Below, piece after piece: positions 3,685-24,285 of a stretch of 54,313 nt of DNA; within the stretch, counting starts at the first letter, position 1; every line of letters begins with the position of its first letter. The notes under the pieces were generated by a model that had not been told where the DNA came from, did not search any database, and was given only the letters and a program-made list of their open reading frames with translations. The translations under genes and the position numbers were made by a program. The stretch is from an uncultured Erysipelotrichaceae bacterium (GTDB lineage: Bacteria > Bacillota_I > Bacilli_A > RFN20 > DUOF01), in the NCBI GenBank assembly GCA_964442785.1, contig CAYTZW010000003.1, positions 1-54,313 on the forward strand, written 5' to 3'.

Positions 3685-5589
3685 TTAAATTTTCTTTGGT
3701 TTTTCTATTTCTAAAAGTTTTTCTTTGTAAAACACTGGATTACTACAAAGTTCCATTATGTTGTTAGCACTACATTTTATTGTTAGTCCGGTATTTTCCA
3801 TTTCAAAAATCAATTCGGTATCTTCAATATTATCTACTAAATTTGAATAGTTTATATAATATTTTCCGTGTAGTAAGATATTCCTTAATTGATTAAAAAT
3901 AAACATTTTATCTTTGTAGCCTTGTGGAGAATTGAATTCTTCGCTATTTTTTGTTTTGAATTGGAATCCGTCCATATCAATTTTCTTAATTGAATTGTAG
4001 ACATCATTTGTTAAAACAGGATATTCGTTGTTTTCATTTTTTTTGCAAGTTTTTTCGGTAAATTGAGTAGCTATTAAAGTATTATAAATAGAAGCACAAG
4101 AAACAACGAACGCTAATTCGTGGTCAGCAGTGTAAGACCTAAAATAATTATTAACAACTAATCTTTCATTTTTAGAAAAATCTCGCCCGCTTACCCTGTT
4201 AAGATAAGCATAAACATTTAAAGCCGTACTTGAAGATTTGTTTCTTAATAGTTTTGCAAACATTTCTAATTCATATTGTTTTAATTCTTCTAAATGGTCA
4301 ATGAAATGTTGGACAATTTTGACTTTTTCTAACCCTGGAACTTCAATTCTAGTTGATTCAATCATTGTTGAGAATAGAGAAAGGATAGCAGGAGTTAGTC
4401 CATTTTTGACTTTTTTATTTCCAAATCCTCCGTCTATTTTTAAGTTACTGGAAGTAGCTAGAAAATATATTTGTTCATTAATATCATTGATTTCATAAAA
4501 TTGTTTGTCGTATCTAAATCTATTTTTCCATTGTTCGACATAAAGAGAATAGTTTTGGTCATCTCTAGCAAAATTAAAATCGATTTCAAAGTCAGTAAAT
4601 CCTTGTTTTTCTAAAGCTTGTGCTAGATATGTTTTAATTGTTTCTTGATGTTTTTTTATAATAATGGAAGCTTCTTCAGGGCTTTTTTTGTTTAATTGAT
4701 ATTTTAATTTTTTATCCATTGCATATACTTTGTTAAATAATTGTTCTTCAATAAAATCTCTAGTAGCCATATAGTTATCTTTTAAGTTTTTGATAGTTAT
4801 CGTCGTATGAATAGTATTATTAAAAATACGTTCTAAATCTTCTTCACTTTGTAAAGGTTTGTTATCGATAAGGATATAACGTGGAAAATAGAAATTGGTT
4901 TCGTTTTCATTTGTTTTAAAATAGGCACTATGAAAATAAACTTTTTTAAATTCTCTTAGCCACGATTCACATAATAAAACATCTATATTTTCACTTTTGT
5001 CTTTAAATAAGTAACAAGTTTCGTTTAGATTAGGGAAAGTTCCTTCATAAAAAGAATTAAGTTCTTCTTTTCCGATTTTTCGATAATCATTATGAGCCAT
5101 ATTGTTACGAATAATGTTAACAATATGACGGGGACTTAATTTTTTTTGATTTAAGTAATTAGACACTAAAACACTGTTGCATTGGGCGGTAACTTCATAA
5201 TCTTTTCCTTTGTTTACTCTTACTTCTTTTCCAAATATATCTTTATAAATAATTTCATTACCATTACGGGTTGTTTTTAAGTCGGCTATTTTTTGTTGGA
5301 TTAAATCTCCTTCGTGAGTTTCTTTTTTTATGACTTTTTTGAAAGTTCCTTGTTCTACCATTGTTTTTAGTGTTTCATCATCAATATCTATTGAAGAATT
5401 ATTAAGCAAGGAAAGAAAAGCAAAATCGGTAATTTGGTCATAAATGAATTGAAAATTCAATTCTTTATTTCTACCAATTTGGTCATAAAAAACATAGTTT
5501 TTATTATCAACTAAATCTTCTTTCACATAATCTTTTTGAGTGGCTATATCAAATAAAAATTGCAAATATTTTTGGACATCTTGGTACAT
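3685..5589 (-). CDS. Orphan dual-HEPN protein (634 aa), predicted RNase
   Basis: Two R-x4-H motifs of the RN-type: IIRNNMAHNDY (nt 5109-5092) and NQLRNILLHGKYY (nt 3885-3868), about 400 aa apart. Start set at ATG 5589, 8 nt after AAGGAG (5603-5598). The tracked GTG 5598 overlaps the SD. Confidence 0.65.
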   Translation of the reverse strand: MYQDVQKYLQFLFDIATQKDYVKEDLVDNKNYVFYDQIGRNKELNFQFIYDQITDFAFLSLLNNSSIDIDDETLKTMVEQGTFKKVIKKETHEGDLIQQKIADLKTTRNGNEIIYKDIFGKEVRVNKGKDYEVTAQCNSVLVSNYLNQKKLSPRHIVNIIRNNMAHNDYRKIGKEELNSFYEGTFPNLNETCYLFKDKSENIDVLLCESWLREFKKVYFHSAYFKTNENETNFYFPRYILIDNKPLQSEEDLERIFNNTIHTTITIKNLKDNYMATRDFIEEQLFNKVYAMDKKLKYQLNKKSPEEASIIIKKHQETIKTYLAQALEKQGFTDFEIDFNFARDDQNYSLYVEQWKNRFRYDKQFYEINDINEQIYFLATSSNLKIDGGFGNKKVKNGLTPAILSLFSTMIESTRIEVPGLEKVKIVQHFIDHLEELKQYELEMFAKLLRNKSSSTALNVYAYLNRVSGRDFSKNERLVVNNYFRSYTADHELAFVVSCASIYNTLIATQFTEKTCKKNENNEYPVLTNDVYNSIKKIDMDGFQFKTKNSEEFNSPQGYKDKMFIFNQLRNILLHGKYYINYSNLVDNIEDTELIFEMENTGLTIKCSANNIMELCSNPVFYKEKLLEIEKPKKI

Positions 5590-5609
5590 AATTAACACTC
5601 CTTGACATT

Positions 5610-6156: not shown

Positions 6157-6299
6157 TTTTTATCACCTTTTTTTTATTATAAGATAATTTTCTGTTGTTG
6201 AATATTAAAATTTTTATTAAAAAGAGAAAATTAGGATACTTTTTGTTTAAAAGTACCTTAGATTACTATATAATTTATATATACTAAGGAGTTAAAAAA

Positions 6300-7640
6300 A
6301 TGGGATTATTGCAAGAAATGTATGATAAATCAAATAATCTAAATATGGAACATAAAGAAGATATTCACGATGTGATTTATGTTTCTTTTTTTGATGTTTT
6401 AAAAGAAAAAAAAGTTAAAAGAAAAGTCTTTCAATTATCTACTTGTGTTTGTTTAGAAAGTCAAAATATTCATAAATTTTATGTAAAATGTCCTAAATGT
6501 GAAGGAACGGGAACAATAAATATTTTCAGCAATGATTTAACTTGTAATTGTTGTAAGGGAAAAGGAAAAATATGTAAAGAAATATGTCCTGTTTGTAAAG
6601 GAAAAACGACAATTATAAGAAAAAAAGAAATGGAGATTTCTCTTAATAAATCATTACTAGATAATCCTGTTTTAATTGTTTCTAAAAAGGGAATTAATCA
6701 AGGTGATTTGATTTTAAAAGTAGTCATTTTTGATAAATATTTTTATTCTATTAAAGATGATGATATTTATTCTAAAAAGGTTCTTTATTTTTCTAAAAAA
6801 GAATTTAAAAATAGTAAAGAAGTAGAAACTATGGTAGATTTTAGTTCTATCAAATTAGATAAAATTGTTTATCAACAAGTAATAAAACTAGAAGGAAAAG
6901 GTTTAAATGGAAAAGATTTTTATCAACCTATTCAATGTGAAGTTGCAGGAAATAAGGGAAAAAATAATTATGGAAACCTTATTTTAGAGAAAAAGGAAAA
7001 AGGAGTTTATGTTAAAAAAGAAAGTTTATATAGTCAAAATTTAGTTTTTGATTATAGTTTGACTAAACCTTTAAATGACCCAAATTATTTGTATTTAGAT
7101 TTAACAAATTTTAGTAAGAATTATGATATTTTAACTTTTAAAGAAATGGGATTTCCAAGTTTAGACGGTGGTGTCAATGGTGATTTATTAATCAAAGTTT
7201 TCGTTGGAAAATACTTTGTTAAAGATAATGCTTTATATCGTTATGATGAACAATTAACTAAAACAGAACTTAGTAGTCATAAAAAAAGTATTATTGTAGA
7301 TAATGAAAAGTATTTAGTTAATATGGACAAAAATCAGGAAAGTAATTATTTTTTGTCTATGGGTAATTTTGGTTTGTTGGACAAAAATAATAAACAAGGT
7401 GCTTTTTTTACTTTAATTAATCATTCTTATTCTATTTATCAAATAAGTACTTTTAACAAGGAAAATCATTTTTATATTGAAGATTATCAACATTTCTTTG
7501 GAGAAAAAGTAAAGAGTTATGCTTCTTGTTCCAATATGGAAGATTATATTGAAGTTAAAGTGTCTTCTAATCCTGTTAGAGTAAAAGATAGTAAAGGTAA
7601 TTTAGTAATTGTTTCTTTATTAAAAAAGGAGGAATTGTAA
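6300..7640 (+). CDS. DnaJ-like protein lacking the J-domain (Zn-finger plus DnaJ C-terminal substrate-binding domains)
   Basis: CxxCxGxG-type repeats CPKCEGTG, CNCCKGKG and CPVCKGKT (nt 6489-6609). Two GDL-strand motifs typical of DnaJ CTDs (NQGDLILKVVIF, VNGDLLIKVFV). No HPD/J helix region. AAGGAG SD. Confidence 0.7.
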   Translation: MGLLQEMYDKSNNLNMEHKEDIHDVIYVSFFDVLKEKKVKRKVFQLSTCVCLESQNIHKFYVKCPKCEGTGTINIFSNDLTCNCCKGKGKICKEICPVCKGKTTIIRKKEMEISLNKSLLDNPVLIVSKKGINQGDLILKVVIFDKYFYSIKDDDIYSKKVLYFSKKEFKNSKEVETMVDFSSIKLDKIVYQQVIKLEGKGLNGKDFYQPIQCEVAGNKGKNNYGNLILEKKEKGVYVKKESLYSQNLVFDYSLTKPLNDPNYLYLDLTNFSKNYDILTFKEMGFPSLDGGVNGDLLIKVFVGKYFVKDNALYRYDEQLTKTELSSHKKSIIVDNEKYLVNMDKNQESNYFLSMGNFGLLDKNNKQGAFFTLINHSYSIYQISTFNKENHFYIEDYQHFFGEKVKSYASCSNMEDYIEVKVSSNPVRVKDSKGNLVIVSLLKKEEL

Positions 7641-10600
7641 TGCTATATTTTGATTTTAGCCAAATTTATCAAAATCGTTATGTTAAAAGAGCTCAAGAAT
7701 CTGATTTTTTTAAAGAATTAGAATTGCTTGATATAACTTTTTCTTCTTATTTGAAAGATATTTTTTCTAAATATAAAAACTTTTATGTTTCTTGTCCTAA
7801 TATTGAAAGAAAAGTAGTCAAAGAAGTTAAAAAAGATGTTTACAAGAATTACTTTTTTCGTCCTGTAACGGATAATGAAAAAGAAATTACTTTAAAAACG
7901 GATTTAGTTTTTAGTGAAGAAAAAATTGCTATCGAAGTTAAAGATATTTATATAAATAAAAATAAGCCTAAACAAAAGTATGAAAATAAAATATCTTGTT
8001 CTGTTTCTACTTTTATCGAAAATAAAAAAGTTAAAAGTGATGCCGATTTATTGCGAAATATTATTTCAAATACGCCTTTTATATGTGATGAAAAAGGAAA
8101 AAATTTTATTAGAAAATGGCTTGATTATTTAGAATTTGAAAAAAACTTTTTTTATGACAAAATAGGTTATCTTTATAGTTTAAGTTTTGAAGTTTTAGAA
8201 ATAGTGGAAATAAAAAGAAATCTTGAAAATTTCCAAAAGTATAAAGATGTTCTTTATTATGATGATAGAAGTAATTATCTTTATGTTAAAAAGGAAGATT
8301 ATTTAGGAAATGAAAATTCGTTTTTTGTTGTCGAATTTGAAGTTTTTGTTAATGATGATAATTATAATTGGGTTTCTTCTTTTATAAGTGAAGATATCGA
8401 AATTGCTAATGTTAAAGAAGCGTTAGATGAAAATAAAAAATTGAAAAATAATACCCTTAGTGATATTGAGTTTTCTTTTAAAACAAAAAGATTAGGAAGT
8501 CTTTTAAAACCTTTAACTTGCAAAGATGAAAACATTTACACTTTTTCTAAATTTTGGGTAGGAGATGAATTGATTCTTGAAAGAATTAATGATTACATTT
8601 GTTCCTTTTTTGGAGAAAAACCTTTGCTTGTTAATATTTTAAGTGGTGATTTAGCATTGTATAAACGTGGAAAACAAGCAATGTGTGATTTGTTGGAAGG
8701 TAATGTTAAAAATCCTGGGATAATCTCTTATTTAATGAACCCCGAAAGTTTAACTTTAAATGATGATGTTGCTTTACAAGACATTAAGTGGTCAGCTTCT
8801 TATTTAGACCAATATCAAAAGGAAGCTATTTGGAAAGCTTTAAATAGTGATTCTTTATTTTTAATACAAGGCCCTCCTGGAACAGGAAAAACTCAAGTAA
8901 TTAGTGAACTTGTTTATCAAGCAAATAAAATAGGGAAAAAGGTTTTATTGTCTAGTCAAACTCATATTGCCATTGATAATGCTTTGGATAGATTACCTAA
9001 TCAATTAGATATTCTTCCAATAAGATTAATCAATTTGGAAAGAAAATCTAATTCTGTTAAAGATTTTTTACCAGATAAATTAGTGGATAATTTATACAAT
9101 AAAATAAAGGAAAATTATCATAATAAACAAGATGATTTTATAAAATTTTATAAACAAATAAAGGAAAATAAAAAAGAATTAAAGGAAATAAAAGATTTAA
9201 TAATTGAAAATAAAATAGAAAGAGAAAATTATTTATCTTTAAAAGAAACTATTAATCAATTAAAGACAAAAATATTAATTAACAATAATGAAATTAATAA
9301 CTTGTTTTTGTCCATAAAAGAAAACAAAAAAGATTTAGATGTTTTATCTTTGTTAAAAAATAATGATTATCAAATTAAAGATTATGGTTGTTATATCAAT
9401 TTGGATTTGTTCAAGGATTTTAATAAGATTATTGATAAATATCAACTTAATAGTTTTTATAATGTTGAAAATAATGATTTGAATCAATATTTTAAAATTT
9501 GTTTAAGTGAAAACTTATGGGGAAATGAAAAATTTAGAAAAGATTATCAAAATATAGTAGTTTCTTTTAAAATTGATAATCAAAAAGAAATAAGTATCAA
9601 GGAAAATGAAAAAGAAATTGAAAAGTTAACAAAGGAAAAAATAGTTTTCCTTTCACAATTAGAAAAAGAAGAAAAAGAAATAAGAATTTTAGAAAAAAGT
9701 AAAAAGAAAATCTTTAATCAAATAGATAATTATTTTGCGAATAATTTAGATTTTGATAATCTTGATATTCCTTTGACTGATTTAGATAAAGTTGCTTTTT
9801 TGGAAGAAGAACTAACAAAAAAAGAACAAGAATTAAAAGAAAAAGAAGAAAGATATTTACACTATAAATCTTTATATGATGATTGTGTTGAATTTTTAAA
9901 TAAGAAAAATGATATTGAAGATGATAGAAAAAAATTAACTCGATATTTATTGAATAATAACGCTAATGTCTATGGAATTACTTGTAATGCTAATTCTTCT
10001 TATTTGGAAGAAAAAAATGAATATTTGAAATCTTTAGGTTTAGGAAATGTCGATTTAAAGAATATTGATTTTGATATTACCATTATTGATGAAGTTTCCA
10101 AAGCCACTCCAATCGAATTATTAATTCCTATTTTATATTCTAAAAGCATTGTTTTAGTAGGAGACCACCGACAATTACCACCAACATTTAAGTATAAACC
10201 AAATATGTTAGATAGTTTGAGCAGTGAAAACAAAATAAGTGTCGACAAATTAAAAGAATATCAAAATATGGTCGAAGATAGTTTGTTTAGTAATTTATTC
10301 ACCCGTACTAAAAGTAATAAAGCAATGTTAGTTAATCAATATCGAGCTCATCAACAAATTGTTGAAGTTACTAATACTTTTTATGAAGATAAATTACAAA
10401 TCGCTGATGTTGAAAAACAAAATAAAGCGAAGGAACACCATATTCAAATTAGTTTAAAAGATAATCCTTTGTTTACTAAAAATGTTCATACTTATTGGTT
10501 CAATTCTTTTTATAATAAAGACGGCTCAATTTCTTATGAGAAAAAGTTGTCTAAAGGTAATGAATTGTCTTCTTCTTTTATCAATGAAGAAGAAATCTAT

Positions 10601-11059
10601 TTGACCGAAAATATTTTAAAAGAATTAGATAATTTCTTTGCAGAAAATGAAATTGAAATGTCTTCTATTGGTGTTATTAGTTTGTATAATGACCAAGTTA
10701 AAGAAATAAGAAAAAAAGTTTTAAAAACAAAATATAAAAAACTTCAAATAGATGCTAGTAAAATATCTAGTGTTGATGAATTTCAAGGAAAAGAAGAAGA
10801 TATTATTATTGTCAGTTTAGTAAGAAATAATCCTAAATTTAATGCAGGTGAATTTACTAAAAAATTTGAAAGAATAAATGTTGCTACTTCAAGGGCTAAA
10901 AAAATGCTTATTGTTTTAGGAGCGACACCTTTCTTTACTAAATTAGAAGTTCCAATTACTTCAATGGAAAATGGTGAAAAAGTAAATCGTAAATTATACA
11001 AAGAAGTTTATGAAAGATTTGTCGGAAAAATAGAAAATCCGAATGTATTTTTTGATTAA
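7640..11059 (+). CDS. Upf1/Sen1/Dna2-like SF1B helicase (AAA_11/AAA_12 type) with an unknown ~400-aa N-domain and a long coiled-coil insert
   Basis: Motif I GPPGTGKT (8870-8893), Ia SSQTHIAIDNALDRL, II IIDEVSKA (~10082-10105), III VGDHRQLPP, IV QYRAHQQI, V VDEFQGKEEDIIIVSLVR, VI INVATSRAKKMLIVLG. A K/E/N-rich heptad-like region spans ~9092-9947. The start overlaps the upstream stop codon (TAATG 7638-7642). Confidence 0.9.
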   Translation: MLYFDFSQIYQNRYVKRAQESDFFKELELLDITFSSYLKDIFSKYKNFYVSCPNIERKVVKEVKKDVYKNYFFRPVTDNEKEITLKTDLVFSEEKIAIEVKDIYINKNKPKQKYENKISCSVSTFIENKKVKSDADLLRNIISNTPFICDEKGKNFIRKWLDYLEFEKNFFYDKIGYLYSLSFEVLEIVEIKRNLENFQKYKDVLYYDDRSNYLYVKKEDYLGNENSFFVVEFEVFVNDDNYNWVSSFISEDIEIANVKEALDENKKLKNNTLSDIEFSFKTKRLGSLLKPLTCKDENIYTFSKFWVGDELILERINDYICSFFGEKPLLVNILSGDLALYKRGKQAMCDLLEGNVKNPGIISYLMNPESLTLNDDVALQDIKWSASYLDQYQKEAIWKALNSDSLFLIQGPPGTGKTQVISELVYQANKIGKKVLLSSQTHIAIDNALDRLPNQLDILPIRLINLERKSNSVKDFLPDKLVDNLYNKIKENYHNKQDDFIKFYKQIKENKKELKEIKDLIIENKIERENYLSLKETINQLKTKILINNNEINNLFLSIKENKKDLDVLSLLKNNDYQIKDYGCYINLDLFKDFNKIIDKYQLNSFYNVENNDLNQYFKICLSENLWGNEKFRKDYQNIVVSFKIDNQKEISIKENEKEIEKLTKEKIVFLSQLEKEEKEIRILEKSKKKIFNQIDNYFANNLDFDNLDIPLTDLDKVAFLEEELTKKEQELKEKEERYLHYKSLYDDCVEFLNKKNDIEDDRKKLTRYLLNNNANVYGITCNANSSYLEEKNEYLKSLGLGNVDLKNIDFDITIIDEVSKATPIELLIPILYSKSIVLVGDHRQLPPTFKYKPNMLDSLSSENKISVDKLKEYQNMVEDSLFSNLFTRTKSNKAMLVNQYRAHQQIVEVTNTFYEDKLQIADVEKQNKAKEHHIQISLKDNPLFTKNVHTYWFNSFYNKDGSISYEKKLSKGNELSSSFINEEEIYLTENILKELDNFFAENEIEMSSIGVISLYNDQVKEIRKKVLKTKYKKLQIDASKISSVDEFQGKEEDIIIVSLVRNNPKFNAGEFTKKFERINVATSRAKKMLIVLGATPFFTKLEVPITSMENGEKVNRKLYKEVYERFVGKIENPNVFFD

Positions 11060-11072
11060 TAGGAGGTATTTT

Positions 11073-11864
11073 ATGAAAATTAATTTTTTATCTTTCACGG
11101 ATTATAAATTAAAAATTAATACTTATAAAAAATGTGATTTAGATTTTTTTAGTTTTTTGTTACTTAAAATTATCACAAGTGAAAATAAAGAAAACAAGTC
11201 ATTAAAATCTATCCTTTTTGATTTTGAAATTACTGAACCTTTGATGTATTTAGCTTCTAATGCTTTTTATGAATTAATTGATAATCATTTAATCGAAACT
11301 TCTTTATCTTTTGAAGAAGTAAAATGTTTAGATATTATCACCAATGATTTGACTTATAAATGTTTAGAAAATAACTATTTTTTGATTTTAGAAGATAGTA
11401 AAGAACAAAGTGTTGCCATTAATCCTTTGAATTATAAAATTGTTTTTAATGATAACAAATATAAAGATGATTATCTTGTTTATAATAAAGAAATTAGTTT
11501 ATCTTTGTTAAATGAAATAATTAATGAAAACAAAAAAAGTTTATTTAATATTAGCGATGATTACCAAATAGAAGTAGAAATACTAGAAGCTAATCCTTTG
11601 TTTACAGAATTAAATTGTAAAGACGTGGAATTTCCTTTAGATTTGAAAGAAATTATTTATGACAATTTGCAATACTTTGAAAAAGAAAATCTAAAAGAAT
11701 ATGAAAAAGATTTCGTGATTTTAACAAAAGAATATGAACTAGAAAAAAATGATAAATATGATTTTATAGCAACTTTGAATAAAGAAAAATATGGCTGTTT
11801 TTATTATTTGGTTGCTTCTAATATTGGAAAAATACCAATGATAAAAAGGACAAAATTAAAATAA
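11073..11864 (+). CDS. Hypothetical protein (263 aa), operon member
   Basis: ATG 11073 follows AGGAGG (11061-11066), 14 nt after the helicase stop codon. No catalytic motifs recognised. The N-terminal ~90 aa may be a small helical/wHTH-like module (weak). Confidence 0.6.
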   Translation: MKINFLSFTDYKLKINTYKKCDLDFFSFLLLKIITSENKENKSLKSILFDFEITEPLMYLASNAFYELIDNHLIETSLSFEEVKCLDIITNDLTYKCLENNYFLILEDSKEQSVAINPLNYKIVFNDNKYKDDYLVYNKEISLSLLNEIINENKKSLFNISDDYQIEVEILEANPLFTELNCKDVEFPLDLKEIIYDNLQYFEKENLKEYEKDFVILTKEYELEKNDKYDFIATLNKEKYGCFYYLVASNIGKIPMIKRTKLK

Positions 11865-11879: not shown

Positions 11880-13280
11880 ATGGATTATTACAAAACTTTG
11901 AAAATAAATGAAAATGCGACTAAAAAAGAAATCGAAGAAGCATATAAACTCTTAAGTGATACTTATAATCCTCTTTATAATACTTCTCCGATTGCTTATA
12001 AAAGATATCGAGAAATTCAATATGCGTACCAAATGCTTCAAAATAAAGAATTGATTACTTTTGAAGAAAATGAAATAACTATTCCTGAAGAAAAAGCAGA
12101 AAAATTTGATTATGAAAATTATTTTAATCATCAAAAAGAAATAAATTATATTCCACTGGAAAATGAAGATATCGAATTATATCAAAATGTTAAAACCGAA
12201 AACGAAACTTTAGACCTTTATAAATATCCTTGTGAGATAAATGTTGATTATTTAAAACTTCTTTTAAATTGCCAAATTGATGTTCTTGTTTTTGAAAAAG
12301 AAGAATGTAAAGAAGCTACTCTTTCCATTTGTCCCGTTTGTAATGGAATAGGAGTAGTAGAATATCAACAAAAAAATGTTGTTTGCCCTAAATGTAATGG
12401 AAAAAAGGAAATAAAAGAAGGCCATTGTCATCATAGTTTAAGAAAAGAAAAAAAAGTAAGATTAGATTTGTCAAAAATAGATGTTACAAAACCTTTGATA
12501 ATCTTGGATACTTACTTAACTTTTAACATTTTAAATAAGGACAAAGTAAAAGAAACTAAAGATGAAATATATGTTAATTATGATTTGTCAAAAGAAGAAA
12601 TATTAAAGGGCTTTAATCAAGAATATAATACCGATAAAGGTGTTTTATCTGTTAAGACAAAAAACTTTGAAGAAGACTATATTCTTAATTATGAAGATAA
12701 AAAACTTATTTTTCATTTCAATACTTTTTCTTTTGATGGAAACAATATTGAAAAAACGATTATTTTCAATAAAAAACATTTACATAAAACTTTATATCTT
12801 AACTTAGATAACTTAACTTATTCTTTAGAAAAAACCTCTCAATTTAATTATGAATTTGTTTTATCTAATCTAAAAGGTTCTTTTAAAGTCAAAGAAAAAG
12901 GAGAAAAAGGATATTTAGAAGGAAAAAATGGTGATTTAATTTTGAATTATTTTGCTTGTAATCATTATTTTGAAAGTAGCAAAAATATAATGATAGAAGA
13001 AACTAGTTTACTATCCAATCTTTTTAAAGATTTTAAAATAAAAGGAAAAAATTATTTGCTTGAAAAAGATGATAAATTAGTAATTTTAACAGGAACATCT
13101 TCTAAAAAAGATTACCTAAAAAACTATTTTTGGTTTAAAATCTTGATTTATTTTATTTGGTTATTAATACCACTTATTTTACTAATAGCACCTTTGAGTA
13201 AAGAATTATTTATTTCGATGTGTATTGTTTCTATAAGTTATGCTATTTTAGCAAATGTTTTGTTAAGATTAAAAATATAA
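11880..13280 (+). CDS. Membrane-anchored J-like/DnaJ-like Zn-finger protein with a degenerate HPD motif
   Basis: N-terminus DYYKTLKINENATKKEIEEAYKLLSDTYNPLYN...YREIQYAYQMLQN aligns to the J-domain, but HPD is replaced by NPL (11967-11975). Has CPVCNGIG (12330-12353), CPKCNGKK (12384-12407) and GKNGDLILNYF. Two C-terminal hydrophobic helices (~13125-13270). ATG 11880 lies 8 nt after AGGAGG. Confidence 0.7.
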   Translation: MDYYKTLKINENATKKEIEEAYKLLSDTYNPLYNTSPIAYKRYREIQYAYQMLQNKELITFEENEITIPEEKAEKFDYENYFNHQKEINYIPLENEDIELYQNVKTENETLDLYKYPCEINVDYLKLLLNCQIDVLVFEKEECKEATLSICPVCNGIGVVEYQQKNVVCPKCNGKKEIKEGHCHHSLRKEKKVRLDLSKIDVTKPLIILDTYLTFNILNKDKVKETKDEIYVNYDLSKEEILKGFNQEYNTDKGVLSVKTKNFEEDYILNYEDKKLIFHFNTFSFDGNNIEKTIIFNKKHLHKTLYLNLDNLTYSLEKTSQFNYEFVLSNLKGSFKVKEKGEKGYLEGKNGDLILNYFACNHYFESSKNIMIEETSLLSNLFKDFKIKGKNYLLEKDDKLVILTGTSSKKDYLKNYFWFKILIYFIWLLIPLILLIAPLSKELFISMCIVSISYAILANVLLRLKI

Positions 13281-13293
13281 AGGAGGAAATAAA

Positions 13294-15570
13294 ATGAAAA
13301 AAAATATTATTTTATGGTCATTTTTCTTGATTTTGCTTTCTTTCTTTATGATTTTTACTAGTGAAGAAATAAAAGCAAAAGAAGTATCTACCAATGATTT
13401 TGCTATCTCTGTTGGTAAAGATAATGTTATCTGGCCTTCTTTTGAAAAAAATGAAGATGATACTTATACTTTACATTTTGGAGTAGAAATAAAAGGAACT
13501 AGTCAAGAAGATTTAACTTTTTCTTTGAAAAGTGAAATAACTTATTTTATCAATGATGAAGAACAAAAAGAAATTGACGAGTTAGATAATAATGGAGATT
13601 ATTTTTCTTCCCAAGGAAGTTATACTTTTGATTTATATGATGAAGATATGCCTAGTTATGTTTTAGGAGAATCTCATATTGATAAGATTTATTTTCAATT
13701 TACTTTTGAATGTATAAGTAATCCAACTTACACGTATGCCATTCAAGTTAGTCCCCTTATCGAATTGGAAGTCCAATATGATTATACAAAACCTGTTCTT
13801 TGTGAAAATGAAAATGAATGTAATTATTTAAGCAATAATTCATATTTAACAGAAGATTATCAATTTAAGTTTACAGCGAGTGATGATGTTTCAGGGGTTG
13901 ATTATATTAAATACTTTTTTAGTACCTCTTATTTTATGAATATAAATAAAGATAAATTTGTTAATCAAATCGTTAATGGAGGGACTTTTTCCTACCAAGA
14001 AAATAGAGAATATTTAATTAATTATGGGCAAGCTACTATAAATATCTATTTATATGTTCTTGTCCAAGATAATGCGTCTAATTATTTGTGTATTTGTTTT
14101 AATTATCTTTACCTTTTAGAAGAAGTAGAAAACAATTTGATTTATAACAAAGAAAACAGTTCTATTCCTAATACCGATAACTATTATAAATCTATTAATA
14201 TCAAAATAGATGTTGAAAATGATTTGTATTATGGTATTAGTTATTATAATTATCTTGATGCTTCTAGTTTGAATAATAGCAAATATCTTTATGATAAAGA
14301 AAAAGGAATTGAAATTAATTTACCTTATACTTGTGAAATATATGTTTTTATTGTTTCGTTTGGTAGTGATGATAGTTTTACTTTTATGATTTTACGTTAT
14401 AAACTTGATAATACTGCTCCTACTGTTACTAGTGCCAATTATCCAGACCTTGACCTTACATATAAAAAGGTTACTTTGAATTTTCAATTTTCGGATAATT
14501 CAGGAACATTTAGTTCTTTTTATCAAATTTCTTCTACTATATTAGAGGATTTAGGAACGATTACTAATGTTTATGAAAATGGAACGGATTTAATTGTGGG
14601 AGAAAACCTAAATGGAGAATATTATATATATTTTGCTATTTATGATGCTTTAGAAAATGTTAATTGGTTTTATCTTCATTATATTTTTGATAATCTACCC
14701 CCTGTTTTAACCTTATCAATAAGTGAACAAGATGCTTTGCAAGTATCTAATGGGAAAAGCATCAAATTAACTTTAAATGAGTTAAAAGGAACTACTTTTA
14801 AATGTAAATGGGCTTTAGATAATTTAGAATTAAGCGAAAATGACTTAGATGCAACTTGTAACAAAGATTCTTACATATCCGCTCCTAATAATAGTGAAGG
14901 ATATTATCGTTTATGGGCTTATTTAGAAGATGATGCCGGTAATAGCACTCTTTATCATTCATATCCTTTTTTAATAGATAGCAAAGGTCCTATAGTAGAG
15001 ATTATTCCTACTTATAATGATACAACTTATCGAGAAACTAACCTTATTGATATTAAAGCAACAGATACCTATACAGGCGTTTCTACCGTGTATTATAAAT
15101 GGTTGACTTATGACCAAAATATAACTTCAGGTACAAGTGTTAATTATGAAGTAATTGATAAAATTGATTATCCTTCCGATAGTTATGGTGTTTATGCCTT
15201 GTGGGTTTATGCTATAGACGGTGCAGGAAATGCTACTTTGTACAAAGATAGCAATAAATACTATGTAGATACTGAAAAATATAATTTATCTTTAATTGGT
15301 AAAGAAAAAATAACAATAGTGAAAAATGAAAAATTTGTTGACCCTGGAGTTAAAGCTTTAAAAGGCGAAAGAAAAGTCGCTTACCAAATTGAAAGCGACC
15401 TAGATATTTCCAAAACAGGAGTTTATACCATTACATACAAATTAGACAATTTAACAATCGAAAGAAAAGTAGAAGTTACTAATACTACTTCGTATTATCT
15501 TCTTATTTCTATTTCAACTTTTCTAGGCTTAATTGTTAGTTTTCTTCCTTTAAGAAAGAAAAAGGTTTAG
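13294..15570 (+). CDS. Surface protein with signal peptide, repeated Ig-like domains and a C-terminal TM anchor
   Basis: N-terminal MKKNIILWSFFLILLSFFMIF; C-terminal YYLLISISTFLGLIVSFLPLRKKK. Recurrent D-x-[ST]G / D-x-AGN strand motifs (SDDVSGV, QDNASN, SDNSGT, EDDAGNST, TDTYTGV, IDGAGNAT). DUF5011-like KFVDPGVKA...GVYTITYKL. AAGGAGG SD. Confidence 0.75.
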   Translation: MKKNIILWSFFLILLSFFMIFTSEEIKAKEVSTNDFAISVGKDNVIWPSFEKNEDDTYTLHFGVEIKGTSQEDLTFSLKSEITYFINDEEQKEIDELDNNGDYFSSQGSYTFDLYDEDMPSYVLGESHIDKIYFQFTFECISNPTYTYAIQVSPLIELEVQYDYTKPVLCENENECNYLSNNSYLTEDYQFKFTASDDVSGVDYIKYFFSTSYFMNINKDKFVNQIVNGGTFSYQENREYLINYGQATINIYLYVLVQDNASNYLCICFNYLYLLEEVENNLIYNKENSSIPNTDNYYKSINIKIDVENDLYYGISYYNYLDASSLNNSKYLYDKEKGIEINLPYTCEIYVFIVSFGSDDSFTFMILRYKLDNTAPTVTSANYPDLDLTYKKVTLNFQFSDNSGTFSSFYQISSTILEDLGTITNVYENGTDLIVGENLNGEYYIYFAIYDALENVNWFYLHYIFDNLPPVLTLSISEQDALQVSNGKSIKLTLNELKGTTFKCKWALDNLELSENDLDATCNKDSYISAPNNSEGYYRLWAYLEDDAGNSTLYHSYPFLIDSKGPIVEIIPTYNDTTYRETNLIDIKATDTYTGVSTVYYKWLTYDQNITSGTSVNYEVIDKIDYPSDSYGVYALWVYAIDGAGNATLYKDSNKYYVDTEKYNLSLIGKEKITIVKNEKFVDPGVKALKGERKVAYQIESDLDISKTGVYTITYKLDNLTIERKVEVTNTTSYYLLISISTFLGLIVSFLPLRKKKV

Positions 15571-22686: not shown

Positions 22687-24285
22687 CTATTTTAAACTAT
22701 TTTCTATATCTTTTATTTCTTTCTCTGTTGTGTATTTACGGTTTACCATTTCTTCTAAAACTTGTTCAGCTTTACCATGCCCTCCTTTTTTAGCCATAAG
22801 CAAATATTTTACCGCTAGTTTATAATCTTGTGGTAGTCCAGCAAATCCGTCGCAATAGCAAAGTCCTAAATTGTACATAGCCATAGTATTTCCCTTACTA
22901 GCGGCTTTTTTATATAAATCTATTCCTTTCTTACAATTCTCAACATTTGAAAAATCTCTACAATAAATCCAACCTAAATCACATTGTGCTTGGACATTTC
23001 CACTATTGGCTGCTTTTATAAGCCATTGTTCTGCAAAATAATAAGATTCTTGTTTTATATAAAAATTACCTAATCGTTGTTGCATTTCAGGGTCTCCTTG
23101 ATTTGCAGCTTTTACATACCAATACTCTGCCTTATTTTCATCTTTTACAACATTATAGTCTCCAAACTCCAAACAAGTACCTAAAAAAACTTGTGATTCT
23201 ACATCTCCGTGTTCAGCAGCTTTGGTATACCATTTTATTCCTAAAGAATAATCTTGTTTTACTATTTCTCCATTTAGATAGAAATAACCTAGGTTTTTTT
23301 CTGCAAATTTATTTCCCTTATTTGCGGATTTTTGATATAAAGAAAAAGCTTTTTCTTTGTCCTTTTCTATTCCTACACCATTATAATAACAATCTGCTAA
23401 TAGGTATTGTGCTTGAGCGTAATTTTTATTTGCGGATTTAGTATATAGTTTAATCATTTCTTTGTAATCTTGTTTTACTCCTAAACCTTTTGCATAAAGT
23501 TCTCCTAAATCACACATTGCTCTTTCATCATCTTGTTCGACAGCTTTTTTGTACCACTCTACTGCTTTTGTGTAATCTTGTTTTACTCCCCTACCCGTCT
23601 TATAGCAATAAGCCAAATTAGTTTGAGCAGTAACATCATTTTGTTCGGCAGCTTTAGTATACCAATACACAGCATTTTCTAAATTTTTGGCAATTCCTGC
23701 TCCACGCTCATAACAATATCCTAAATCAGATTGTGCATCTGCATTTCCTTGCTTTGCCGCTTTTTTGTACCATTCTACTGCTTTGGCTTCGTCCATATTT
23801 ACGCCTCTACCATAATAATAGCGTTCTCCTAAAGAATGTTGTGCAGCATCATAACCTTGTTTTGCTGATAAAGTATACCACTTTACTGCTTTCTTGTAAT
23901 CTTGTTTTACTCCAAGTCCCTTATAATAACAGACGCCTAAATTATGTTGACCAACTGCATATCCTCCCTCAGCGGATTTAGTAAACACTTCGATTGCCTT
24001 TTTTAAGTCTTTTTCTACTCCAATACCATTAATATAAAAATAGCCCAATTTAGACATTGCTTCAACATATCCATTATCACTAATACTAGTTAGTAATTTT
24101 ATTCCTTTTTCGCAATCTTTTTTTATTTTTTCTCCTAAAACATATCTTATAGCAAGAGTAATTTGAGCGGCTACATCATTTTCAGTAGCAAGTTTTATTA
24201 GTGTTTCATTATCTTTGTTTTCATAATTATCCATTATTTCTTTATTTTTTTGATAATTCTTTTCTATCGTTTTTAATTTTCCCAT
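22687..24285 (-). CDS. Sel1-like repeat protein (paralog of the downstream gene)
   Basis: About 13 SLR repeats. Its N-terminal ~80 aa align with those of the 21658-22662 product. Confidence 0.85.
   Translation of the reverse strand: MGKLKTIEKNYQKNKEIMDNYENKDNETLIKLATENDVAAQITLAIRYVLGEKIKKDCEKGIKLLTSISDNGYVEAMSKLGYFYINGIGVEKDLKKAIEVFTKSAEGGYAVGQHNLGVCYYKGLGVKQDYKKAVKWYTLSAKQGYDAAQHSLGERYYYGRGVNMDEAKAVEWYKKAAKQGNADAQSDLGYCYERGAGIAKNLENAVYWYTKAAEQNDVTAQTNLAYCYKTGRGVKQDYTKAVEWYKKAVEQDDERAMCDLGELYAKGLGVKQDYKEMIKLYTKSANKNYAQAQYLLADCYYNGVGIEKDKEKAFSLYQKSANKGNKFAEKNLGYFYLNGEIVKQDYSLGIKWYTKAAEHGDVESQVFLGTCLEFGDYNVVKDENKAEYWYVKAANQGDPEMQQRLGNFYIKQESYYFAEQWLIKAANSGNVQAQCDLGWIYCRDFSNVENCKKGIDLYKKAASKGNTMAMYNLGLCYCDGFAGLPQDYKLAVKYLLMAKKGGHGKAEQVLEEMVNRKYTTEKEIKDIENSLK

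Follow-up and report, generated by a model that had tools for sequence, protein, structure and literature searches.

Two kinds of prokaryotic systems built around helicases of the Upf1 type have been described that bear on the locus reported here. In Mokosh type I, a COG1112 helicase with a serine/threonine kinase domain is accompanied by the phospholipase D (PLD) nuclease MkoB, whereas the PLD domain is fused in type II (Millman et al. 2022, 10.1101/2022.05.11.491447). In CoCoNuT systems of Types II and III, the UPF1-like helicase CnuH carries "a large helical insertion" after Walker A, which is partly coiled coil, and an OB/stalk module before the first RecA-like domain (RecA1). CnuE, encoded downstream of CnuH, is typically an elongated winged helix-turn-helix (wHTH) protein fused to a nuclease (HEPN, PLD or Vsr), and its wHTH was placed on the CnuH insertion by an AlphaFold2 (AF2)-multimer model. 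Type III-A also contains Hsp70-like domains, in a chaperone-type association, and its CnuE has two HEPN domains (for all CnuH and CnuE traits, see Bell, Sahakyan, Makarova, Wolf and Koonin, eLife 2024, PMC11090510). We describe here a five-gene operon around a helicase of this kind, P0001 (1139 aa), in 54,313 nt of DNA from an uncultured Erysipelotrichaceae bacterium (contig CAYTZW010000003.1, assembly GCA_964442785.1). This whole stretch is referred to as the window.

P0001 is encoded by the second of five tightly spaced genes lying on the same strand in the order P0002, P0001, P0003, P0004 and P0005 (Table 1). The five genes were found in identical order in nine other loci from four genera. 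A first-pass annotation, made from the letters of the window, had dealt with the helicase alone. Its reading of the single gene was right in many features; the informative feature is nevertheless the conserved five-gene operon with its nuclease-bearing ancestry. The single-gene finding is largely explained by a published family, and the unusual part is the operon. We read it as a nuclease-less conflict or surveillance module in which P0001 would be an ATP-driven nucleic-acid motor or sensor, a reading to which we give an even chance. The operon represents a helicase–adaptor pair of the Mokosh/CoCoNuT type which has lost its nuclease and is fixed alongside a surface protein and two DnaJ paralogues that are Hsp70-incompetent; it has been kept vertically across a whole family of small-genome gut bacteria.

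The assignment of P0001 to the Upf1-like helicases of superfamily 1B (SF1B) is secure, since sequence motifs, Pfam domains, PDB sequence matches and the fold matches of a structural model all agree. Motifs I, Ia, II, III, IV, V and VI are intact and lie on two RecA-like domains. Motif I (Walker A), GPPGTGKT (aa 411–418, nt 8870–8893), is followed by motif Ia SSQTHIAIDNALDRL (aa 438–452), motif II IIDEVSKA (aa 815–822, with DE at aa 817–818, nt 10088), motif III GDHRQLPP (aa 841–848), QYRAHQQI (aa 900–907, with QYR at aa 900–902), motif V VDEFQGKEEDIIIVSLVR (aa 1045–1062) and motif VI INVATSRAKK (aa 1079–1088). The catalytic residues K417, D817, E818, Q845, R902 and R1085 are invariant in an alignment of 60 P0001 homologues. 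Pfam recognized AAA_11 and AAA_12 (the latter at aa 879–1095), and the closest solved relatives in a PDB sequence search were IGHMBP2, Dna2, Sen1 and Upf1. An AF2 model built on the 60-sequence alignment, with a predicted local distance difference test score (pLDDT) of 85 and a predicted template modelling score (pTM) of 0.77, matched IGHMBP2 (E 3.6e-24), SETX (1.7e-23), Upf1 (7e-21) and Dna2 (4e-20) in Foldseek, and further Aquarius and ZNFX1. Pfam, PDB, Foldseek and PADLOC thus confirmed the Upf1/Sen1-clade SF1B identity that the first-pass annotation had proposed, and all the helicase motifs which it had quoted were found intact in their places and invariant in the alignment.

By its profile matches, P0001 belongs to the prokaryotic MkoA/CnuH branch of these helicases. 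The PADLOC profile MkoA (PDLC03920; E 1.5e-100, 336 bits) was the best of any library searched; PDLC03921 also matched (E 2.2e-81), and PDC-S37, MkoC, DpdJ and Hhe scored far below MkoA. In the MkoA alignment, aa 190–1121 of P0001 are placed on positions 448–1091 of the 1112 profile positions, with positions 1–447 unmatched. A span of 932 residues therefore falls on 644 profile positions, and the ~290 extra residues correspond to a coil inserted in the helicase core. The label "PLuB system" was rejected, since the match to NCBIfam NF040671 reached 157 bits against a cut-off of 999 and represents generic RecA2 similarity; the term was found in no paper.

The gene following the helicase links the operon to a nuclease-bearing family. 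The N-terminal domain of P0003 (~135 aa) is homologous to the N-termini of PIN- and HEPN-like proteins that are encoded right after related helicases. Jackhmmer converged on 13 such proteins, each directly after the helicase in distant loci. Among 1.84 billion representatives, the domain occurs in 535 clusters, always at the N-terminus, and most members are 700–900 aa long. The majority of the long members checked have a PIN or HEPN-like RNase module at the end: PIN_4 was confirmed by Pfam in five of the ten long members tested (E 1e-16 to 4e-23), and other long members end in R..RN...H motifs of HEPN type. P0003 itself has 263 aa (328–344 aa in other genera), and neither a conserved RxxxxH nor a PIN motif was found in nine P0003 orthologues. 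No family in Pfam, PADLOC or NCBIfam matched P0003; a weak match to a MarR-type wHTH (HpaR, E 0.056) was obtained alongside the corresponding sequence pattern. Since the N-terminal domain is shared, the relatives have PIN or HEPN tails and P0003 has no nuclease motif, P0003 probably belongs, judged by position and architecture, to a CnuE-like partner family, as a truncated member that has no nuclease.

The relatives of P0001 and P0003 occur together in a cassette of regular composition, which consists of a helicase (1270–1540 aa), a wHTH-PIN or wHTH-HEPN protein of 700–837 aa, a protein of ~370 aa, an AAA+ protein of ~610 aa that resembles ClpB-D2 and an NrdG-like radical-SAM enzyme of ~185 aa. 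The hidden Markov model (HMM) of P0003 matches the N-terminus of the 700–837-aa protein. The cassette was found in Moraxella, Stutzerimonas, Microbacterium, Fibrobacter, Lachnospiraceae, Anaeroplasmataceae, Clostridia and Spiroplasma and thus in at least five phyla (locus L019, 8001–17253, and loci L016–L018, L030–L035, L038, L041, L054 and L077). Wadjet, IS66 or integrases often adjoin it, and relatives were found on conjugative plasmids. PADLOC covers the cassette in part, with MkoA, PDC-M37B/DolB and a weak pVip match. P0001 and the helicase of L019 share 31% identity over aa 2–612. In a maximum-likelihood tree of helicase cores, the clade of P0001 is monophyletic (support 100/99). It is nested in a larger clade (100/100) that comprises radical-SAM-type helicases of Bacillota and Mycoplasmatota, and its sister is L019 (92/78). 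Because of this nested position, the DnaJ-type operon is regarded as derived from the radical-SAM cassette. We found no paper on the ClpB/radical-SAM cassette or on the combination of genes in the DnaJ-type operon. A homology of the DnaJ-like partners to the ~370-aa or the ClpB-like cassette proteins was searched for and gave no matches. Two relatives from Mollicutes, in a Mycoplasma sp. (L101, 7324–16238) and in Ureaplasma diversum (L108, 7432–16166), consist of a helicase gene and genes for proteins of ~690, ~327 and ~600–668 aa. They contain no radical-SAM gene, and the inserts of their helicases are shorter, with 291–353 aa from Walker A to motif III.

Among the relatives examined, DnaJ-like partners were found only in the clade of P0001. 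P0002, whose stop codon overlaps the ATG of P0001, precedes the helicase in all nine related loci. Pfam detected DnaJ_C (E 5.5e-8) and DnaJ_CXXCXGXG (7e-4) in it, i.e. the client-binding domains and the CxxCxGxG zinc finger, and NCBIfam DnaJ_bact aligned aa 13–204 with profile positions 110–318. Neither Pfam nor NCBIfam found a J-domain in P0002, and it has no transmembrane (TM) segment. In P0004, a paralogue of P0002, the J-like domain has NPL in the place of HPD; the protein also contains a CxxC zinc finger and a DnaJ_C-like region, and its C-terminus is a membrane anchor of ~50 aa. Its open reading frame opens at GTG 11871, whereas its orthologues begin at the position of ATG 11880. Where HPD would be expected, P0004 and its eight orthologues all have [DN]-P-x, and the hydrophobic anchor is kept in all nine orthologues. 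The HPD tripeptide is essential for the activation of Hsp70. Since P0002 lacks a J-domain and P0004 has lost HPD, neither should be a functional Hsp40 co-chaperone, and their sequences indicate that they cannot activate Hsp70. One canonical dnaK–dnaJ pair is present in the genome, away from the operon. P0005, the last conserved gene product of the operon, is present in all nine related loci and has an N-terminal signal/TM segment, Ig-like domains and a C-terminal TM anchor; the N-terminal and the C-terminal hydrophobic segment were each found in eight of nine orthologues. The accessory proteins of the operon share 25–36% identity among the loci. Upstream of the operon, a promoter-like site was found at 6246–6274, and the scan for promoters and terminators otherwise remained at background level.

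Two further observations were made on the DnaJ-like proteins. A weak match (E 1.6e-5) was obtained between the zinc-finger region of P0002 (aa 12–120) and positions 229–332 of the PADLOC candidate PDC-M01B, and DnaJ-type zinc fingers may thus occur in another candidate defence system as well. P0157 (789 aa; L113, 279–2648), in which a P0003-like and a J-like protein seem to be joined, was rejected as a read-through in gene calling, which needs TAG to be read as Gln.

The extra residues of P0001 are predicted to form a helical hairpin between motifs Ia and II. In the AF2 model, an outward arm (aa 478–574, with helices 478–523 and 525–574) and a return arm (aa 648–773, with helices 648–702, 714–754 and 759–773) enclose an apex (aa 575–647), and the pLDDT of the whole block is 73–92. 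Pro and Gly together make up at most 1% of both arms. When 28-residue windows were compared with shuffled sequence, the hydrophobicity of the a/d heptad positions exceeded the 95th percentile of the shuffles in 59% of the windows of the outward arm, 26% of those of the return arm and 1–3% of those of the N-terminal and post-insert regions. Of the shuffles, 0.2% reached the 3.5-residue Fourier power found for the outward arm. With its predicted long helices, its low Pro and Gly content and its heptad periodicity above the shuffles, the insert is, in the model, coiled-coil-like and not disordered low-complexity sequence. The coiled coil between motifs Ia and II that had been read from the letters was accordingly borne out by the AF2 helices and the heptad statistics, and the disordered insert, which had been named as the alternative to it, was tested by the same means and is not the case. 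From the secondary structure, the matching lengths of the arms and the pTM of 0.77, we infer that the two arms form an antiparallel hairpin. Its site is presumably the position of subdomain 1C in Upf1-like structures (the "prong" of Sen1).

The first-pass annotation had also held this insert to be far longer than in typical members of the family, which turned out to be wrong for the prokaryotic relatives. In 89 of these, the distance from Walker A to motif III fell into classes of 130–300, ~350–380, 430, 464–535, 625–664 and 779–831 aa. The clade of P0001 forms the class of 430 aa, its nearest relatives have 464–535 aa, and related clades reach 831 aa. The inserts of related prokaryotic helicases comprise 290–650 extra residues, and those of the own clade are the shortest among the nearest relatives; in aligned homologues, the segment equivalent to the insert has 312–327 aa in the own clade and 387–426 aa in distant homologues. 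The coiled-coil insert of P0001 is thus ordinary among prokaryotic relatives and long only in comparison with eukaryotic Upf1, Sen1 and IGHMBP2. An insertion enlarged in this way between motifs Ia and II is common to the entire MkoA/CnuH branch and is a published trait of CnuH. Upf1-like helicases of a Bacillales clade (L039–L051, L076 and L109) have a Walker A–motif III distance of 625–664 aa, and those of a clade from cyanobacteria and Chloroflexota (L036, L037, L040, L043, L053, L102 and L104) one of 779–831 aa. The genes downstream of these long-insert helicases were not matched by the profile of the P0003 N-terminal domain.

The comparison of the insert with SMC proteins that had been drawn from the letters holds only for the outline, i.e. 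two helical arms of matching length with a small apex; an SMC/ABC head, a hinge and sequence similarity are all missing. In SMC and Rad50, an ABC head is split by the coil and the apex bears a hinge or zinc hook, whereas P0001 has a core of the SF1 RecA type and its coil lies inside RecA1. The apex of P0001, a helical bundle of 73 aa, contains no conserved Cys, and no SMC or Rad50 family of Pfam or NCBIfam matched the protein. The resemblance of the long helical hairpin to Rad50/SMC arms, together with the presence of Dna2 among the best PDB and fold matches, might suggest a DNA replication or repair helicase of the Dna2/RecD2/Pif1 kind whose coil serves as a Rad50/SMC-like DNA tether. We consider this scarcely probable: P0001 contains no nuclease or other repair domain and no SMC, Rad50 or ABC signature, IGHMBP2, SETX and MkoA match it better than Dna2 does, its partners in the operon are DnaJ-like or surface proteins instead of repair factors, and the nearest helicase relatives are coupled to RNases.

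The region preceding RecA1 was modelled separately (aa 1–385, pLDDT 87) and contains beta-rich modules and long helices at aa 47–353. Foldseek searches of PDB and BFVD with this model gave nothing significant (best PDB E 0.013); the pre-helicase parts of Aquarius and Sen1 recurred as weak matches (probability 0.3–0.7, E ≥ 0.03). An N-terminal profile of 19 sequences matched nothing in PDB and Pfam. Since the alignment with the MkoA profile starts at aa 190, aa ~190–388 probably represent the MkoA-type pre-helicase region, whereas no fold or family could be assigned to aa 1–189 by sequence and fold searches. The description of the first 400 aa as unassigned therefore applies to the latter part and not to the former. 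The segment WLDYLEFEKNFF (aa 160–171), the most conserved N-terminal motif with Y163–E167 invariant, had been likened to the pre-helicase barrel; the model places it within a long helix rather than a barrel strand. No nuclease domain was found in P0001 with Pfam, PADLOC, NCBIfam, the N-terminal profile against PDB and Pfam or the N-terminal fold search, in agreement with the in-cis absence first noticed in the letters, and the PADLOC match to Hhe (E 1.5e-7) covers the helicase part only. A nuclease in the N-terminus, which would have placed the protein in a named family such as Nhi, was sought with the 19-sequence profile and with Foldseek against PDB and BFVD; it was rejected, as nothing significant was obtained.

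In the explanation that we favour, the five genes form a translationally coupled operon, for which P0001 would provide the ATP-driven motor or sensor. By family precedent, P0001 may move 5′→3′ on single-stranded RNA or DNA. Its hairpin would be the docking arm for the N-terminal domain of P0003, by analogy with the CnuH–CnuE model. The operon is a nuclease-less descendant of the widespread mobile helicase/wHTH-PIN-HEPN/~370-aa/ClpB-like/NrdG-like cassette. In the lineage of P0001, the partner P0003 has lost its RNase domain, the genes of the unfoldase and the radical-SAM protein have been replaced by those of two Hsp40-derived proteins, one soluble and one membrane-anchored, and the Ig-like surface protein has been added. 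The Hsp40-derived proteins, having kept their zinc finger and client-binding domains, may be client-binding or tethering adaptors at the membrane, and the output would be protein- or membrane-directed rather than nucleolytic. A conflict or surveillance role with such an output is the most likely one. The conflict-type neighbourhood of the relatives (Wadjet, IS66, integrases and conjugative plasmids) and the presence of an integrase and a HEPN-like orphan in the window argue for this explanation. If the operon serves defence, it would be a system with a membrane-coupled output and no cutting of nucleic acids. A more specific form, which we regard as unlikely, is a nuclease-free, chaperone-derived immune or surveillance system whose helicase reads foreign or aberrant nucleic acid and signals through the coil and the winged-helix adaptor to the membrane Hsp40-derived proteins and the Ig-like surface protein, or in the reverse direction. 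If this form were true, then, counting the ClpB-like proteins of the related cassettes and the published Hsp70-like partners of CoCoNuT III-A, helicases of the MkoA/CnuH type would have recruited three chaperone families (Hsp40, Hsp70 and Hsp100) as output modules, and the nuclease would be dispensable.

Several observations weigh against the conflict or surveillance module. Nine of the 11 genomes of the family contain the helicase, and no other family of the order has it at full length. Its identity to the homologues of other genera (43–49%) is close to that of NusA (51–55%) and FtsK (49–58%) in the same genomes. The flanking synteny is stable over three genera, with genes for AAA_21, a ~194-aa protein and an M48 peptidase downstream (L001, 18455–21434; L003, 15594–18458; L021–L025). 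The presence in nine of 11 genomes, the divergence near that of NusA and FtsK and the shared downstream synteny point to long vertical retention, and these sequence data indicate that the helicase is a near-core gene, unlike typical, patchily distributed defence systems. In addition, the clade is absent from the phage collection, no plasmid match spans more than 34% of the protein, and no effector is recognizable in the operon.

The same data suit the main rival explanation, a domesticated, lineage-specific housekeeping module, for instance one of RNA surveillance or remodelling that is tied to membrane or surface-protein biogenesis via DnaJ-derived adaptors. The distribution, the divergence close to that of housekeeping proteins such as NusA and FtsK and the stable synteny all speak for it, and so do the loss of the nuclease domain, the retention of a 9.3-kb operon in a genome of 1.17 Mb and the fact that a secreted protein with Ig-like domains and a J-like membrane protein are fixed members. 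The absence of the helicase from the two remaining genomes (G001 and G002) was considered as a sign of dispensability; the flanking genes tested are also missing there, and these two cases are uninformative. On the other hand, all identifiable relatives of the helicase–partner pair are RNase-armed, mobile, patchily distributed and located beside defence genes, the accessory proteins diverge much faster than NusA, and we know of no housekeeping pathway with such a set of proteins. We therefore view domestication as possible but doubtful. It would mean that a bacterial immune helicase module was turned to a cell function, in parallel with the proposed origin of eukaryotic Upf1-based RNA surveillance as defence against foreign RNA (PMC5031192).

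The genes downstream of the related cassettes were also considered as evidence of a defence island. AAA_21 corresponds to PADLOC AbiLi (E 5e-66), and the ~194-aa protein weakly matches AbiLii/HEC-01B. The latter is 62–81% identical across three genera and thus more conserved than the cassette proteins, and the AbiL pair is ambiguous; it was not relied on. In neither the window nor L004 is the cassette followed by the trio of AAA_21, ~194-aa and M48 genes.

The surroundings of the operon in the window contain one candidate for a missing nuclease. A 637-aa orphan encoded on the minus strand at 3685–5598, divergently from the operon, has the HEPN-type motifs RNNMAH (aa 164) and RNILLH (aa 572). 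With this protein as the candidate nuclease in trans, the operon could be an RNA-targeting system like Mokosh or CoCoNuT. The strong MkoA match of P0001 and the two motifs are in line with such a system, and HEPN is the usual effector of CnuE, with two HEPN domains in Type III-A (PMC11090510). However, the HEPN-like gene is absent beside the cassette in all other loci and the protein is not matched by the HMM of the P0003 N-terminal domain, and the dual-HEPN-like neighbour was rejected as the missing CnuE on these grounds. Moreover, the sole PLD protein of the genome is encoded elsewhere and resembles cardiolipin synthase, and the cassette lacks a kinase domain as well as homologues of McrB and McrC. 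A nuclease acting in trans is for these reasons quite improbable.

Other genes of the window were noted in passing. The gene at 2–1075 on the plus strand, ~5 kb upstream of the operon, encodes a tyrosine integrase with Phage_integrase, SAM-like and Arm DNA-binding domains and is cut off by the left end of the window. Between it and the operon there are an SDR gene and an unknown gene. On the minus strand at 22687–24285, a 532-aa protein has apparent tandem Sel1-like repeats ("KAVEWY.K.A.QG...AQ..LG.CY..G.G"), as judged from the translation only.

Table 1 Features of the operon and of the helicase P0001 in the window
Feature	Coordinates	Strand	Basis
P0002, 446 aa, soluble DnaJ paralogue without J-domain	6300..7640	+	Pfam, NCBIfam
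P0001, helicase, UPF1-like SF1B, probable MkoA/CnuH branch	7640..11059	+	
P0001 N-terminal region, aa 1–388, predicted beta-rich with long helices	7640..8803	+	AF2, MkoA profile
P0001 RecA1, first part with motifs I and Ia	8804..9070	+	Motifs, Pfam, alignment
P0001 predicted helical coiled-coil hairpin, aa 478–773, between motifs Ia and II	9071..9958	+	AF2, heptad statistics, lengths in relatives
P0001 RecA1 remainder (motifs II, III) and RecA2 (motifs IV–VI)	9959..11056	+	Motifs, Pfam AAA_12, PDB matches
P0003, 263 aa, putative nuclease-less partner	11073..11864	+	HMM, jackhmmer links
P0004, ~466 aa, J-like, membrane-anchored	11880..13280	+	Pfam DnaJ 4e-10
P0005, 758 aa, Ig-like surface protein, last conserved operon gene	13294..15570	+	Pfam Bact_surface_Ig-like 5.3e-9

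A comparison with the known systems shows how far each of them accounts for the operon. P0001 shares the SF1B fold, the motifs and the accessory elements on RecA1 with eukaryotic Upf1, Sen1/SETX and IGHMBP2 (Foldseek E 1e-24 to 1e-16). Motifs Ia and II lie much closer together in the eukaryotic proteins, which are without DnaJ-like or wHTH partners; in the shortest of the Upf1-like relatives collected, the Walker A–motif III distance is ~130–210 aa, compared with 430 aa in P0001. Dna2, Nhi and Hhe carry a nuclease in the same polypeptide, whereas P0001 does not.

With MkoA of Mokosh, P0001 has in common that it is a COG1112/Upf1-like helicase, and its pre-helicase region and both RecA domains are matched by the MkoA profile. 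It differs in having ~290 extra residues in the coil, first 189 residues that are unmatched and no kinase domain, no kinase family of Pfam or NCBIfam being found. No MkoB or PLD protein was detected among the operon proteins and the upstream neighbours scanned. A search of the whole genome for MkoB and PLDc_2 gave a single protein, encoded on another contig (C20), which has 507 aa and two PLDc_2 domains (MkoB E 2.4e-4) and resembles cardiolipin synthase; membership in Mokosh was rejected. As there is neither a kinase domain nor a PLD nuclease partner, the operon is, by its gene content, not Mokosh.

The radical-SAM cassettes and the operon are alike in the homologous N-terminal region of the helicase, the position of the coil and the N-terminal domain of the partner. 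In contrast to the operon, the cassettes have kept the RNase domain, encode an unfoldase and a radical-SAM enzyme, are mobile and have a coil that is ~100 aa longer.

The closest agreement is with the CnuH–CnuE pair, compared here by its published description only. Both have a UPF1-like helicase with a coiled-coil insertion and a beta-rich and helical part before RecA1, followed immediately downstream by the gene of a protein with an N-terminal helicase-partner domain, which in CnuE is described as an elongated wHTH and in close relatives of P0001 is fused to PIN or HEPN-like modules. CnuE carries a C-terminal nuclease, which P0003 lacks. CoCoNuT proper further has the McrB-like GTPase CnuB and the McrC-like CnuC, whereas the operon and its neighbours match no McrB or McrC family; the operon is also without TerY-P and has instead two HPD-less DnaJ paralogues and an Ig-like surface protein. 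Since McrB and McrC homologues are lacking, the operon is not a CoCoNuT; its predicted proteins fit the architecture of a CnuH with a CnuE-like partner, minus the nuclease.

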